Shown one piece after another: positions 24,817-34,506 of a stretch of 64,000 nucleotides of DNA. The notes under the pieces were generated by a model. The model saw nothing but the letters and a program-made list of their open reading frames with translations, had not been told where the DNA came from and made no database searches. Location: NCBI RefSeq assembly GCF_001677475.2, contig NZ_CP015229.1; one strand, written 5' to 3'. The stretch comes from Escherichia coli (lineage in GTDB: Bacteria > Pseudomonadota > Gammaproteobacteria > Enterobacterales > Enterobacteriaceae). Each line of letters opens with the position of its first letter. Positions within the stretch are counted from its first letter, which is position 1. The position numbers were made by a program, and so were the translations under genes.

Positions 24817-25516
24817 GGGAGTTCTACCGCAGGGGCGGGGAACTCCAAGTGATATCCATCATCGCATCCAGTGCGCCCGGTTTATCCCCGCTGGCGCGGG
24901 GAACACCAAATCCAGCCAGCCGCCGACGGTAATCACCCCGGTTTATCCCCGCTGGCGCGGGGAACACTATGGGGTAGGGCGCTATCAGACATTTACGCAC
25001 GGTTTATCCCCGCTGGCGCGGGGAACACTGCAAGTAACGTTAAGGGAACCGTGGAGACAGCGGTTTATCCCCGCTGGCGCGGGGAACACTTAGAAAACGC
25101 AATGAGCCGCGCGCCCATACCCGGTTTATCCCCGCTGGCGCGGGGAACACGGCACGCTGGACTGAACAAATCCCTGGGCCATCGGTTTATCCCCGCTGGC
25201 GCGGGGAACACACTTACAACCACAATAATAAAAAAAGCCTCGTCGGTTTATCCCCGCTGGCGCGGGGAACACGCCGCTATCTCACCACCAGAACTGTTAC
25301 CCGTCGGTTTATCCCCGCTGGCGCGGGGAACACTTGCAGTGGATAGTCATGTAGCCCGCGCGGGCCGGTTTATCCCCGCTGGCGCGGGGAACACTTTAAA
25401 TACTGCCGTTCCAGCTTGTTGATCGCCGGTTTATCCCCGCTGGCGCGGGGAACACCGTAACTGCCTGTACACGCTGTAATGGCTCACCGGTTTATCCCCG
25501 CTGGCGCGGGGAACAC
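24817..25516 (-). CRISPR. CRISPR array 1 (type I-E): 11 identical 29-nt repeats plus 1 degenerate terminal repeat, 11 spacers of 32 nt
   Basis: Repeat CGGTTTATCCCCGCTGGCGCGGGGAACAC (plus strand) recurs at 24878 + 61k for k=0..10. Degenerate distal repeat at 24817-24845 (GGGAGTTCTACCGCAGGGGCGGGGAACTC). Leader is on the cas2 side, so transcription is on the minus strand. Confidence 0.97.
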
Positions 25517-25612
25517 ACTAAGCATACATAACTGTTTTTAAACAAATTTATTCCGCATCAACAATCTACCAACTAAATTAAAACATTTCCTTATTTTTAA
25601 AGAACGGATAAC
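25517..25612 (-). promoter_or_regulatory. CRISPR array 1 leader (AT-rich) between cas2 stop and first repeat
   Basis: AT-rich 96 nt; contains ACAATCTACCAAC about 42 nt from the first repeat, a motif also present in the array 2 leader. Confidence 0.7.
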
Positions 25613-25906
25613 TTATTGATTATCAACAGGAAGAAAAGAAACCAAACGCAACCCATCCAAATCCACCGGAATACGTCTATTTTCACCCCAGGTCTGAAAT
25701 TCAAAACCTGACTCGGTATTGGTCGCCCAAGCCATCACTACATTTCCGCAACCTGCCAGTTGAGAGATTTGCTGCCAGATCATCTCCCGAATACGTTTGG
25801 ATGTATCTCCGACATACACACCGGCACGCACTTCCAATAGCCAGATAGCGAGCCGTCCACGTAAACGTGGAGGAACATTTTCCGTTACAACTACGATCAT
25901 ACTCAT
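25613..25906 (-). CDS. cas2: CRISPR adaptation endoribonuclease Cas2
   Basis: 97 aa, [33 protein letters not shown]… (I-E Cas2); ATGA overlap with cas1 stop. Confidence 0.93.
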
Positions 25907-31752: not shown

Positions 31753-31781
31753 CTGTTCCCCGCGTCAGCGGGGATAAGCCC
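31753..31781 (+). repeat. Solo CRISPR-repeat-like sequence, inverted relative to both arrays, just downstream of cas3
   Basis: Plus strand CTGTTCCCCGCGTCAGCGGGGATAAGCCC; its reverse complement matches the array repeat at 25 of 29 positions; begins 26 nt from the cas3 stop. Confidence 0.6.
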
Positions 31782-31806
31782 TGGCGTCATCCGACTCCAG
31801 GGCATC

Positions 31807-34506
31807 TCAATCAACCTTACCAATCAATCCCTCCGTAGCCGAATACCCGCAACTTTCGTCATCGGTAACTAAAATCACATTTGCCATCTCCGGATCTTGC
31901 CGCTGTTCAACGCACCACTGCCTGAACGCATCCCCTTCCAGTAAAGAAAACTCATCGCGATGTTTTTTCCACCAGCTTCGACGCACTCTGACAACGCTCA
32001 TTTCCCATGCGTGAGCACCGGTGGCATAAGGCTTCACCACACCGTCAATACAGGTAGCCAGCCACAGGGAAACAGATTCCTCAGCCAGACGTGTCGACAG
32101 CTTTTCCGGAAGGTAATCGTTGATATTGGCGGCATAGCCAGGCTTGAAGTTCAGGACAAACTTTTTAGCCATTGCACGATCGCAGTAATATTTGCCCACT
32201 TGCTCCTGCTCGCTGCGGGCAAATCCTTCCGGCATTACCACGTCCTCACCGTAGACTGATTCAATAAGAAGGCGGGCTGCGTGTGGCATTTGAATAGCGC
32301 CTTGCTCACGCAGTACACGCTGCGTCAGCCAGATTCGTCCATGATCGGGATAGACATATGCACTGTTACGCATGGCACTGCCGAACCATTCGTCACCAGG
32401 AGCGTCGTCCCAGACGGGGGCCAGAATCAGCAATTCAGGAGGGGAACGCTCGTCTTTTCCGTCACGCTTTAACTGACCATTAATATCGCGGATATGCCGC
32501 TGTAATCGCCCCGCCCGTTGGATCAGCAAATCAACAGAGGCCAGGTCGGAGATCATTTCGTCCAGGTCAATATCCACACTTTGTTCAATTACTTGCGTAC
32601 AAACAATGACTTGCGATAATCTCTGTAAACTACAACTTTTACCAAAGCGTGCCAACGTTTCCGTTTCAATTCGCTGGCGATCGCTAAAAGCAAAGCGGCT
32701 ATGAAAAAGAGAAAGGCTGGAAGCAGGAATGACGCCGCGGGCAAGTAACTGACGATAAACTTTAATAGCATCATCGACAGAATTCCGGATCCAGGCGATG
32801 CATTTCCCCTGACTTACCGCCGATTCGATACGCGCAATACACTCTTGTTCGCTATGAAGCCAACCCACGCTCACGCTACGCTCAACGTCTTTGCGCGTCG
32901 CTACCCGGTGTGAATGCACATCGGATTTCGTAACGTGCGTCAGCCAGGGGTAATCATCCTTTTCCAGGAACGGAGCTTCTTGCTGGCCCTCTGTACCACG
33001 CGCAAAGGCAGCAACGAGTTTGTCGCGCTGCTGTTGAGATAACGTGGCAGAAAGCAAAATGACGCTGTTTCCGCCACGCGCCTGCAGCTCGATCAGCCCT
33101 TCAAGAATGCATGACATGTAAGCGTCACAGGCATGGATCTCATCAGCCAGCAGGATTTTGTTACTCAGTCCCAGAAGCCGCAGATTATTATGTTTGAACG
33201 GCATCACAGCCATCATCGCCTGATCCAGCGTGCCGACGCCAATTTCAGCCAGCAACGCCTTCTTGTTACTGTCAGCAAACCAGGCCGCACATCCCTGGCT
33301 GAAAGCTTGTTCATCCGGTTCTTCTGACCCGACTAAATCACCGGACCAGAGTGATTCATTAAAGCGGTCCATTAATGTGCGGGCACTGTGTGCCAGCACC
33401 AGGCTGGGGCGGGATTGTGGCGAATAGAAAGCAAGCCAGGTTTTGACCAGCCGATCGTACATGGCATTGGCCGTTGCCATTGTTGGCAGGCCAAAAAACA
33501 AACCCTGCGCTTTCCCCGCAGCCATCAACCTGTGCGCCAGGATAAGCGCCGCTTCTGTTTTACCTGCGCCGGTTACATCCTCCAGAATAAATAACTGTGG
33601 TCCCGGCTGGCTGATATCCAGATCCAGCACCTTTTGCTGTAGCGGTGTCGGATTCTCAATAAAAGGAAACAGCGTATTAATTCCGGTGAAAGGCGCGGTT
33701 TCTGCTTTTGGAGGAAAGACGGTTAAGGCGTTTTGAGCCTGAACTAAAGTTTTCTGCCAGTAATCTTCAATATCCATTGTCTGTGCGACGCGTGGAAAAA
33801 ATCGCGTTGACGATCCCGTCCAGTCTGCAAGTACGACGGTTGCAGAGATATACCAGGAAAGTTGTTTTATAAGTTCAACGCCCTCGTCATCATCCCAGAA
33901 TGTGGGGATCTCTATGAGCGGAAACAGTGCCTTGATTGCAAGGAGAAAATCTCGTGCGGCAGCTTTGTCTTCAGGCAGAAAGTTGTCCAGTTCATCCATA
34001 CGGTCAGGAGGCCGACCATGATGCCCGGTAGTTATGGGCATCCACATATCTATTACCCGTTTGAGCTTGCGCGGAGAGAGTGAAGATGCAGGAAGCAATT
34101 CTTCGCATTCACTTAAATAATGGTGCCACAACCAGTAACCCAGCGTTGAATGAGAGATTTTTTCGTAATTTTTTCTAGAGCTTTCCGGAACCTTGAGTTG
34201 CGGGTGCAGGTAAAGTTGCTGAAAAGAGCGGGCAAATTTTCCAGTATCGTGCCAGCACAATAGCCAGGCGAAAAATTGTGCTGCCTGCTCCGTATCAGCG
34301 AAACCTAGTTGACGAAAATAGTCAGCCAGCCCGAAGCAATTGCTTTTAACCATTAAATAGCCCATCGCGGCTACATCCAGCGAATGCCAGCAAAGAAGGT
34401 GATAGTCGTCGCCCCCGTCTTTCTCGCCGCGTCGGGTTTTTCCCCAGAAATCAAAAAAAGTCACAATATTTTTATCCTTCAGTAAACTTAAAGGATATTT
34501 ACGCAT
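31807..34506 (-). CDS. cas3: Cas3 HD-nuclease/helicase (type I-E)
   Basis: 899 aa; N-terminal HD domain (…LLCWHSLDVAA…), helicase motif I (TGAGKTEAA) and motif II (LLADEIHACD). Confidence 0.93.
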   Translation of the reverse strand: MRKYPLSLLKDKNIVTFFDFWGKTRRGEKDGGDDYHLLCWHSLDVAAMGYLMVKSNCFGLADYFRQLGFADTEQAAQFFAWLLCWHDTGKFARSFQQLYLHPQLKVPESSRKNYEKISHSTLGYWLWHHYLSECEELLPASSLSPRKLKRVIDMWMPITTGHHGRPPDRMDELDNFLPEDKAAARDFLLAIKALFPLIEIPTFWDDDEGVELIKQLSWYISATVVLADWTGSSTRFFPRVAQTMDIEDYWQKTLVQAQNALTVFPPKAETAPFTGINTLFPFIENPTPLQQKVLDLDISQPGPQLFILEDVTGAGKTEAALILAHRLMAAGKAQGLFFGLPTMATANAMYDRLVKTWLAFYSPQSRPSLVLAHSARTLMDRFNESLWSGDLVGSEEPDEQAFSQGCAAWFADSNKKALLAEIGVGTLDQAMMAVMPFKHNNLRLLGLSNKILLADEIHACDAYMSCILEGLIELQARGGNSVILLSATLSQQQRDKLVAAFARGTEGQQEAPFLEKDDYPWLTHVTKSDVHSHRVATRKDVERSVSVGWLHSEQECIARIESAVSQGKCIAWIRNSVDDAIKVYRQLLARGVIPASSLSLFHSRFAFSDRQRIETETLARFGKSCSLQRLSQVIVCTQVIEQSVDIDLDEMISDLASVDLLIQRAGRLQRHIRDINGQLKRDGKDERSPPELLILAPVWDDAPGDEWFGSAMRNSAYVYPDHGRIWLTQRVLREQGAIQMPHAARLLIESVYGEDVVMPEGFARSEQEQVGKYYCDRAMAKKFVLNFKPGYAANINDYLPEKLSTRLAEESVSLWLATCIDGVVKPYATGAHAWEMSVVRVRRSWWKKHRDEFSLLEGDAFRQWCVEQRQDPEMANVILVTDDESCGYSATEGLIGKVD

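Follow-up and report, generated by a model that had tools for sequence, protein, structure and literature searches.

In Salmonella enterica, a mini-array located between cas3 and casA of a type I-E CRISPR-Cas locus produces an RNA, CreR, that guides the Escherichia coli Cascade complex to an AAG-flanked partial site upstream of casA; CreR repressed PcasA 8.6-fold, and excess CRISPR RNA (crRNA) or AcrIE8 lifted the repression (Liu et al. 2023, bioRxiv 10.1101/2023.03.10.532045). For ~19% of bacterial type I-E loci, a mini-array oriented opposite to cas3 was predicted in the interval from cas3 to cas8 (Shmakov et al. 2023, bioRxiv 10.1101/2023.03.03.530964). As both preprints describe it, the haloarchaeal type I-B CreTA (Li et al. 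2021) also uses a crRNA-like RNA from a degenerate mini-array, which by partial pairing directs Cascade to repress a nearby promoter. The type I-E cas genes of E. coli occur as a variant named cas-E1 (Almendros et al. 2014, PMC3903273) or cas-EO (Diez-Villasenor et al. 2013, PMC3737337), viewed as primary in the species, and as the K-12 variant E2, viewed as a later replacement in a minority of strains (PMC3903273, PMC3737337). Here we describe the CRISPR-Cas locus in a stretch of 64,000 nucleotides of E. coli DNA (contig NZ_CP015229.1; hereafter the window). Judged from its sequence features, this locus probably encodes an intact cas-E1 type I-E immune system together with a CreR-type autoregulator placed between cas3 and cse1.

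The cas operon and its variant

The window has a gene order of the E. coli type, namely, mutS, rpoS, cysDNC, iap, CRISPR, cas, cysHIJ, ygcE, CRISPR, queE, and eno, and its cas locus occupies the customary chromosomal site (iap, array 1, cas2 to cas3, hok/sok, cysH). Eight type I-E cas genes lie on the minus strand within 25613-34506 in the order cas3-cse1-cse2-cas7-cas5-cas6e-cas1-cas2 (Table 1), and all of their frames are uninterrupted, with no internal stops. Every Cas protein, including the signature effectors Cse1 and Cse2, passed the curated cut-off of the matching I-E NCBIfam model. Cas3 exceeded the cut-offs of TIGR01596 (HD) and TIGR01587 (helicase core), also matched Cas3_HD and Cas3-like_C_2 of Pfam, and keeps the HD pair H86/D87, the Walker A residue K316, the DEIH motif (455-458), and the SAT motif (486-488). 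The catalytic residues E141, H208, D218, and D221 are kept in Cas1, and the catalytic histidine of Cas6e is H30 in the alignment. Translational starts are coupled: ATGA is common to cas1/cas2 and to cse1/cse2, GTGA is common to cas6e/cas1, and cas5 and cas6e overlap by 19 nt. An earlier note, made from the sequence alone, had claimed eight intact I-E genes with these overlaps; the open frames, the NCBIfam models, and the kept catalytic residues bear out the first claim, and the coordinates show the second to be correct. These results confirm a complete CRISPR-Cas system of type I-E, which is ordinary and already catalogued.

Table 1. Features of the CRISPR-Cas locus and its surroundings in the window
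Feature	Coordinates	Strand	Description
Array 1 (CRISPR2.1/CRISPR-I, beside iap)	24817-25516	-	11 perfect 29-nt repeats GTGTTCCCCGCGCCAGCGGGGATAAACCG and a degenerate trailer repeat (24817-24845); 11 spacers of 32 nt
Array 1 leader, AT-rich (L1/leader-A type)	25517-25612	-	110 nt compared: identical to GF43, differs from K-12
cas2e	25613-25906	-	97 aa; TIGR01873, 132 bits (cut-off 33); 86% identity to K-12, 100% to GF43
cas1e	25903-26826	-	307 aa, GTG start; TIGR03638, 379 bits; 85% identity to K-12
cas6e	26823-27473	-	216 aa; TIGR01907, 286 bits
cas5e	27455-28201	-	248 aa; TIGR01868, 160 bits
cas7e	28212-29267	-	351 aa; TIGR01869, 448 bits
cse2/cas11e	29282-29818	-	178 aa; TIGR02548, 105 bits
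cse1/cas8e	29815-31377	-	520 aa; TIGR02547, 605 bits
Predicted site of the mini-array RNA	31611-31645	-	PAM AAG (31645-31643), then partial protospacer AGTTATTGATATATGTA; 234-265 nt upstream of the cse1 ATG
CreR-like mini-array	31695-31781	+	Antisense to the cas genes
psiR1	31695-31720	+	CAGTTCCCTGTCTAAGGGATTAACCA, 26 nt; a short hairpin folds
psiS (pseudo-spacer)	31721-31752	+	AGTTAGTGATACACGTATATCATTTTATGCTC, 32 nt
psiR2	31753-31781	+	CTGTTCCCCGCGTCAGCGGGGATAAGCCC, 29 nt; 25/29 identical to the array repeat, Cas6e hairpin kept
cas3	31807-34506	-	899 aa; HD nuclease fused to SF2 helicase
hok/sok toxin-antitoxin locus (between cas3 and cysH)	34701-34995	-	Rfam sok at 34838-34995, 113 bits; hok frame at 34701-34853
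Array 2 (CRISPR-II, ygcE-queE)	50965-51786	-	13 perfect repeats GAGTTCCCCGCGCGAGCGGGGATAAACCG and a degenerate trailer repeat (50965-50993); 13 spacers
Array 2 leader and upstream region (leader 2.3)	51787-52125	-	110 nt beside the first repeat: few differences from K-12 and GF43
PAM, protospacer adjacent motif.

The Cascade and Cas3 proteins are far from those of K-12, with identities of 27% for Cas6e, 35% for Cas5, 30% for Cas7, 21% for Cse1, and 28% for Cas3; Cas1 and Cas2 reach 85% and 86%. For Cse2, a BLASTP comparison with K-12 CasB yielded nothing significant (E = 6 for the best alignment, of 21 residues), and the K-12-specific NCBIfam models stayed below their cut-offs (PRK09693 on Cse1, 99 bits vs 576; PRK09694 on Cas3 likewise). 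The Cas proteins are 97.5-100% identical to those of strain GF43, and the operon DNA is 98.3% identical; Cas5 is 100% identical to GF43 WP_000085058.1, the accession annotated in O55:H7 CB9615. The cas7e gene of GF43 is interrupted by an internal stop (L009 22693-23748), whereas that of the window is intact. Based on the Cas identities to GF43 and O55:H7, the L1 leader, the GTG-type iap-side repeats, and the position of hok/sok between cas3 and cysH, the sequence assigns the locus to cas-E1 (cas-EO, O157/O55-type), arrangement A (PMC3903273). At least 80% of the operon is present in 2410 of 5426 complete E. coli genomes (~44%), and cas-E1/EO is the majority variant of E. coli and probably the ancestral one (PMC3903273, PMC3737337). 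The placement in a non-K-12 allele group by the earlier note thus stands, with K-12 identities of 21-35% for the Cascade and Cas3 proteins and no Cse2 match, but its label "alternative" does not fit a majority variant; of the three proteins whose N-termini it reported as diverged from K-12, Cas6e and Cas5 are distant, but Cas1 is 85% identical and differs noticeably only in its first ~8 residues. The mean GC content was reported as ~53.5% for E1 genes and 45.6% for E2 genes (PMC3903273); the cas genes of the window have 46-55%, and the cas2-to-cas3 stretch including the intergenic region has 50.5%.

The window resembles the described arrangement A loci in gene order, site, L1/leader-A, GTG-type iap-side repeats, and the hok/sok locus beside cas3, and the PAM seen here falls within the AWG (= CWT) motif defined for the variant. 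It differs from other cas-E1 strains in its cas3-cse1 gap, which is 429 nt long and contains a mini-array (O55:H7 and nearly all E1 strains have a 97-nt gap that lacks it), in an array 2 that is fused to the CRISPR2.2 remnant and carries a GAG...GCGA repeat, and in a hok gene with a nonsense codon. With the K-12 cas-E2/EK system it shares the subtype, gene order, locus, a near-identical repeat, Cas1 and Cas2 (85-86%), the anchor spacer A1_11, and, in the cas3-casA region, a psiR1 that resembles a repeat and has a partial target beside AAG; unlike K-12, it has Cascade and Cas3 proteins of 21-35% identity, another leader, and a hok gene, of which K-12 keeps only a sokX remnant. The housekeeping flank mutS-rpoS-iap (window 1-24000) has at most 98.1% identity to any of the 5426 complete genomes, so the lineage of the window is missing from that set. 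This flank includes hydroxyarylic acid decarboxylase genes (~11042-13062), which GF43 has too. The exact locus (100% identity) is found in public draft assemblies, and an identical Cas3 is encoded on at least 25 contigs.

A predicted CreR-type mini-array between cas3 and cse1

The 429-nt region between cas3 and cse1 (31378-31806) contains two repeat-like sequences, psiR1 and psiR2, on either side of a pseudo-spacer, psiS (Table 1). psiR1 is degenerate, with a 3-nt deletion and seven substitutions relative to the array repeat, and its 5'-handle-like sequence ATTAACCA agrees with ATAAACCG at 6 of 8 positions. The hairpin of psiR2 is paired in all seven sequences compared (five psiR2 copies and two array repeats), with one compensatory change; in this set of only seven sequences, 82 of 500 shuffles paired equally well. 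Across the entire window, psiS has its best partial match on the cas-sense strand at a distance of 80 nt, beside an AAG PAM. Guide and site match at positions 1-5, 7-11, 13, and 15-17, and mismatches fall at positions 6, 12, and 14. Positions 6 and 12 are flipped-out, unpaired bases in type I-E Cascade. When psiS was shuffled, none of 5000 shuffled spacers reached an equal AAG/ATG-flanked score in this region. Because its architecture is that of published CreR/CreA-type crRNA-like regulators, we predict that the mini-array encodes a CreR-type regulatory RNA, a known kind of element that is rare in E. coli.

By its published description, CreR of S. enterica ATCC 51960 likewise consists of two degenerate repeats and a spacer-length sequence between cas3 and casA/cse1. 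In CreR and the mini-arrays of Shmakov et al. 2023, as in the window, psiR1 keeps the 5' handle and psiR2 the hairpin, the orientation is opposite to cas3, and the seed side of the guide partially matches a site beside AAG upstream of casA; the first 7 nt of psiS (AGTTAGT) are the same in the window and in the S. enterica locus that we fetched. CreR and the element of the window differ in the target, since the CreR site lies ~140 bp upstream and pairs over 15 consecutive nt, whereas that of the window lies 234-265 nt upstream with breaks at 6, 12, and 14. CreTA, as outlined in the two preprints, is a toxin-antitoxin pair of subtype I-B, unlike this I-E locus, in which inspection of the stretch from the mini-array to cse1 revealed neither a creT-like small open reading frame with tandem rare codons nor a toxin gene. 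Between psiR2 and the cas3 stop lies an inverted repeat, GCCCTGG-N12-CCAGGGC (31782-31806), which is kept in 4/4 long E. coli haplotypes and may act as a terminator of cas3 or form the 3' end of the transcript from the mini-array.

The mini-array region was found in 9 of the 5426 complete E. coli genomes, at full length in GF43 and N3 only and in diverged form in the other seven. In strain 135, psiS and its site have changed together, such that 19 of the first 21 positions match beside an ATG PAM; in M121, they have also changed together, with 15/17 matches beside ATG. In both strains, the mismatches within the paired stretch fall only at positions 6 and 12, and strain 135 additionally shows a compensatory change from C-G to U-A in the psiR2 stem. 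Loci of other genera were fetched through homologues of Cse1. Klebsiella aerogenes, one S. enterica genome, and Citrobacter rodentium have cas3-cse1 gaps of 420-495 nt, in which a mini-array is placed and oriented as in the window; the psiS sequences are unlike between genera, and each has its own AAG/ATG-flanked partial site with the 1-5/7-11 seed pattern. Guide and site thus co-vary in five other loci, with a mismatch at position 6 and a second one at 12 or 13. The common S. enterica and Citrobacter freundii loci have an 11-nt cas3-cse1 gap and no mini-array. The common 97-nt gap of E. coli E1 loci (L070 4396-4492; L078 904-1000) aligns with the 429-nt form only over ~45 nt before cse1 and contains neither the mini-array nor its site; it may have arisen by either deletion or replacement.

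In K-12, the cas3-casA region (L010 10140-10553) contains a repeat-like psiR1, ACCTTCCCTACTTAAGTAGGGATAAACCG, with a perfect 5' handle, and the sequence following it has an AAG-flanked partial match in the same region (13/15 informative positions). This arrangement fits the example that Shmakov et al. 2023 give for E. coli.

We propose a working model whose steps are drawn from established type I-E biology and, beyond the sequence features, are inferred. Both arrays would be transcribed from their leaders on the minus strand, and Cas6e would cut the transcripts at the base of the 7-bp hairpin to give 61-nt crRNAs, in which the spacer of 32 nt is framed by an 8-nt 5' handle (AUAAACCG) and a 3' handle that forms a hairpin. 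Cse1, Cse2, Cas7, Cas5, and Cas6e would assemble with a crRNA into Cascade, which would bind DNA beside a 5'-AAG or 5'-ATG PAM and recruit the nuclease-helicase Cas3, and Cas1-Cas2 would insert new spacers at the leader ends of the arrays. The targets that can be identified are temperate phages, namely, lambdoid/phiV10-like and P22-like phages and a prophage with tail and head-completion neighbor genes. Plus-strand transcription of the mini-array would yield a crRNA-like RNA, which Cas6e would process, and its pseudo-spacer would pair only over the PAM-proximal ~17 nt with the site upstream of cse1. Cascade carrying this RNA would bind there without cutting and lower the transcription of its own operon, and the repression would ease once real crRNAs or anti-CRISPR proteins draw Cascade off.

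Arrays, spacer targets, and array history

Both arrays have a period of 61 nt, and their repeat pattern was absent from shuffled sequence (0 matches in 100 shuffles). The repeat folds into a 7-bp stem with a 4-nt loop (~-15 kcal/mol). The AT-rich leaders lie on the high-coordinate side of both arrays, which indicates that the crRNA strand is the minus strand. All 11 repeats of array 1 begin with GTGTTCC, and those of array 2 start with GAG and, through a C-to-G change, carry GCGA in the loop, which leaves the 7-bp stem unharmed. In K-12 and GF43, the ygcE-queE region comprises a one-spacer CRISPR2.2 remnant and CRISPR2.3, which are kept apart by ~530 bp of AT-rich DNA. In the window, one array extends without a break from the trailer repeat of CRISPR2.2 to the leader of 2.3; a comparison of window 50920-51054 with L010 29376-30013 shows the AT-rich DNA to be missing, and the gap between array 2 and ygcE is 45 nt. 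By its sequence layout, array 2 is therefore assigned to a fused CRISPR2.2-2.3 form, which is a minority form and not new. The exact leader and variant first repeat were found in 45 of the 5426 genomes, O166:H15 strains among them, and the two of these that we fetched, MEI003 and PCN033, have the same fused layout. Among GTDB species representatives, the array-2 repeat variant occurs as single copies in Klebsiella oxytoca and a Pluralibacter metagenome-assembled genome.

The repeat count and the period agree with the 11 and 13 spacers given in the earlier note, and both leader-proximal spacers that it quoted match the arrays exactly. It had placed both arrays within 24817-34506, but array 2 lies ~16 kb beyond that range. 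The core of its account, a complete I-E system with two arrays, is sound, but it overlooked the cas3-cse1 mini-array and the fusion in array 2.

The 24 spacers, joined by Ns, served as queries for three sets, namely, phage records (50,697), plasmid records (72,556), and complete E. coli genomes (5,426). Targets were found for four of them (A2_05, A2_07, A2_10, and A2_11), all from array 2 and all in temperate phages or prophages. A2_07 matches a prophage of strain EC2 at 32/32 positions, within an eae-like gene that lies close to replication genes, and the P22-like Salmonella phages ST160 and SE1 at 30/32. A2_05 matches (31/32) the holin gene of a prophage in strain ZF8-1, whose neighbors encode tail and head-completion proteins, and A2_11 matches (31/32) the lambdoid phage HK629, phiV10, O157 typing phages, many prophages, and 45 IMG/VR contigs. 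The protospacers of these three spacers, which are the strong matches, are all preceded by 5'-AAG; with a chance of 1/64 each, 3/3 is far from chance. Apart from CRISPR arrays, the checked chromosomal matches in E. coli genomes were all in prophage regions. Matches to plasmid records added little: they were chromosomes mislabeled as plasmids, with their CRISPR arrays, or records with a phage ead/Ea22-like gene.

The earlier note held that the targets could not be determined without a search, and the search has resolved this in part, with temperate phages for 4/24 spacers and no match for 20/24. The AAG/ATG PAM that it proposed to look for was found, as AAG, at A2_05, A2_07, and A2_11 and not at A2_10. 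It had named matches to the host chromosome alone, at non-PAM sites, as the outcome that would speak against its view; the matches lie instead in phage genes beside AAG. Prophage targets along with many orphan spacers agree with Dion et al. 2024 (PMC10910852).

The trailer spacer of array 1, A1_11, is a species-wide anchor: ~4270 of the 5426 genomes, including K-12, match when A1_11 is in the query and 660 when it is masked. A1_06 also occurs in O157/O55:H7 arrays. For 22 of the 24 spacers, no array match of at least 30/32 was found among the complete E. coli genomes listed, and the most spacers shared with any complete genome was two, among the matches listed. A related genome with an identical Cas1 (L021) has A1_05, A1_06, A1_09, and A1_10 in common with the window, in addition to A1_11, and carries 15 other leader-end spacers as opposed to the four of the window. 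Genomes with an identical YgcE (L023 and L024) have the same kind of array 2, with only the anchor A2_13 or nothing in common; the flanks of array 2 are 99.5-99.8% identical to the window. In a comparison of L024 with window 46941-53400, the ygcE-side flank was 99.8% identical and the leader/queE-side flank 93.4%, a drop suggesting that a recombination event had its breakpoint within or at the CRISPR-II array. The polar pattern, with a common trailer end and a unique leader end, fits stepwise acquisition; recombination contributes too, since one flank of L024 is only 93.4% identical. The ancestral loop persists in MEI003 in the repeat that flanks A2_13 toward the trailer, so all units on the leader side of this repeat joined the array after the mutation of the first repeat.

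Three spacers showed further relationships. A2_09 (51238-51269) occurs in the same register and with 31/32 identity in the iap-side array of CFSAN061769 (L014 1201-1232) and other strains; it looks like an independent capture of a favored protospacer, and no target was found in phages, plasmids, the examined E. coli genome matches, or IMG/VR. A2_13 (50994-51025) overlaps the leader-proximal spacer of CLSC36 (L013 1494-1525) with an offset of 7 nt and 25 identical nt, so both spacers were taken from overlapping sites of one target; the bases preceding the A2_13 protospacer would be GCG, a non-canonical PAM. The iap-side array of L021 contains the spacer CCTGCAACGTCCACAAATCGGGAAATATCGAA twice (4982-5013 and 5714-5745), through either internal duplication or repeated acquisition.

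Alternative readings, wider meaning, and the hok/sok neighbor

The reading of an intact, autoregulated immune system has one serious competitor, namely, that the system is intact but cryptic. Under this alternative, which we consider possible though somewhat short of an even chance, the operon would lie silent under H-NS, as that of K-12 does, its spacers would amount to a fossil record, and differences between arrays would arise by recombination and deletion and not by ongoing acquisition. H-NS is the silencer of the K-12 system, and the AT-rich cas3-cse1 region (GC 0.44) would fit H-NS binding; the region upstream of cas3 is AT-rich as well. E. coli type I-E systems are generally reported to be transcriptionally repressed and inactive in the laboratory, with arrays that are stable over years (PMC10910852). 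The identity jump across the CRISPR-II array of L024 shows that recombination occurs there, and cas7 is a pseudogene in GF43, the complete genome closest to the window. Other points weigh against the proposed reading itself. Simple scans for promoters and terminators in both leaders and in the cas3-cse1 region returned nothing above shuffled expectation; no consensus promoter was found at the leaders or overlapping the predicted site. The only cas-sense promoter-like site in the cas3-cse1 region is at 31497-31470, and the number of such sites is no higher than in shuffles. The candidate promoter of the mini-array (TTCGAA, 16 nt, TGaTATAAA at 31661-31688) was recognized by eye only, and because the predicted site lies at least 234 nt upstream of cse1, the way in which binding would repress transcription is inferred.

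The spacers add further points against the proposed reading. A2_10 matches P2-like cox genes at only 29/32 positions, and the match is doubtful because the preceding bases are GTG or ATA instead of AAG. No target was found in the phage, plasmid, and E. coli sets for 20/24 spacers, including all of array 1. Scans of IMG/VR, with queries carrying N at every sixth position, gave no match for A1_01, A1_02, A1_03, A2_01, A2_02, and A2_09, a negative result that is meaningful because the same type of scan found 45 contigs for A2_11; metagenome scans gave no match for the leader-proximal A1_01 and A2_01. Against the cryptic alternative, all eight genes are intact with their catalytic residues kept, and the array differences are polar, being common on the trailer side and unique on the leader side. 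The same derived repeat is present in 13/13 units of array 2, as expected if it was copied from the first repeat at acquisition, and a self-repressor that has been kept implies expression to repress. We favor an intact system under autoregulation over a silenced one.

It is improbable that the mini-array is a functionless leftover of a decayed array with a coincidental match upstream of cse1. The strong degeneracy of psiR1, the weak pairing statistics of psiR2, and the absence of the element from more than 99% of E. coli E1 loci, as well as from the common S. enterica and C. freundii loci, would fit such a leftover. A coincidence, however, does not readily account for a canonical PAM and an I-E seed pattern that no shuffled spacer equaled, or for pseudo-spacers that are wholly unlike between genera while each has a PAM-flanked partial site in its own intergenic region. 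Moreover, the conserved parts of psiR1 and psiR2 are those needed for crRNA handles, and a similarly placed Salmonella I-E mini-array represses PcasA (10.1101/2023.03.10.532045). It is very improbable that the system serves chiefly host gene regulation or self-targeting and not defense: although most spacers have no foreign match and a regulatory role was proposed for E. coli I-E from computational analysis (PMC6413058), the window beyond the arrays contains no match to any spacer at up to eight mismatches, the matched spacers point to phage genes beside AAG, and the checked chromosomal matches are in prophages.

The cas variant itself is routine, being annotated in thousands of genomes, and the exact locus is already public. 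The spacer targets, temperate phages with correct PAMs, are in line with the recent view that prophages are what E. coli CRISPR mainly acts on (PMC10910852). The mini-array, which is kept here and lost in nearly all E. coli, would make this strain a natural E. coli background for testing RNA-guided autoregulation of cas genes; autoregulation of type I-E has so far been shown only with the Salmonella element moved into K-12 (10.1101/2023.03.10.532045). Its presence or absence also allows a test of correlation with CRISPR activity within E. coli. As a speculation that we regard as unlikely, the 429-nt region with the mini-array may be the ancestral, autoregulated enterobacterial form of E1, from which more than 99% of E. 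coli E1 loci, with their 97-nt gap, have lost guide and site. In that case, the loss of both this circuit and the native promoter of Cascade, and not H-NS alone, would help to explain why E. coli CRISPR looks inert, and the rare lineages with the mini-array, such as that of the window, whose relatives show complete spacer turnover in both arrays, would carry a naturally active, self-tuned system.

The hok/sok locus adjoins the operon on the cas3 side (Table 1), and an Rfam search of the window returned nothing besides the sok RNA. At codon 19, the hok frame is interrupted by a nonsense TGA, whereas Hok is intact, at 50 aa, in GF43 and O55:H7.

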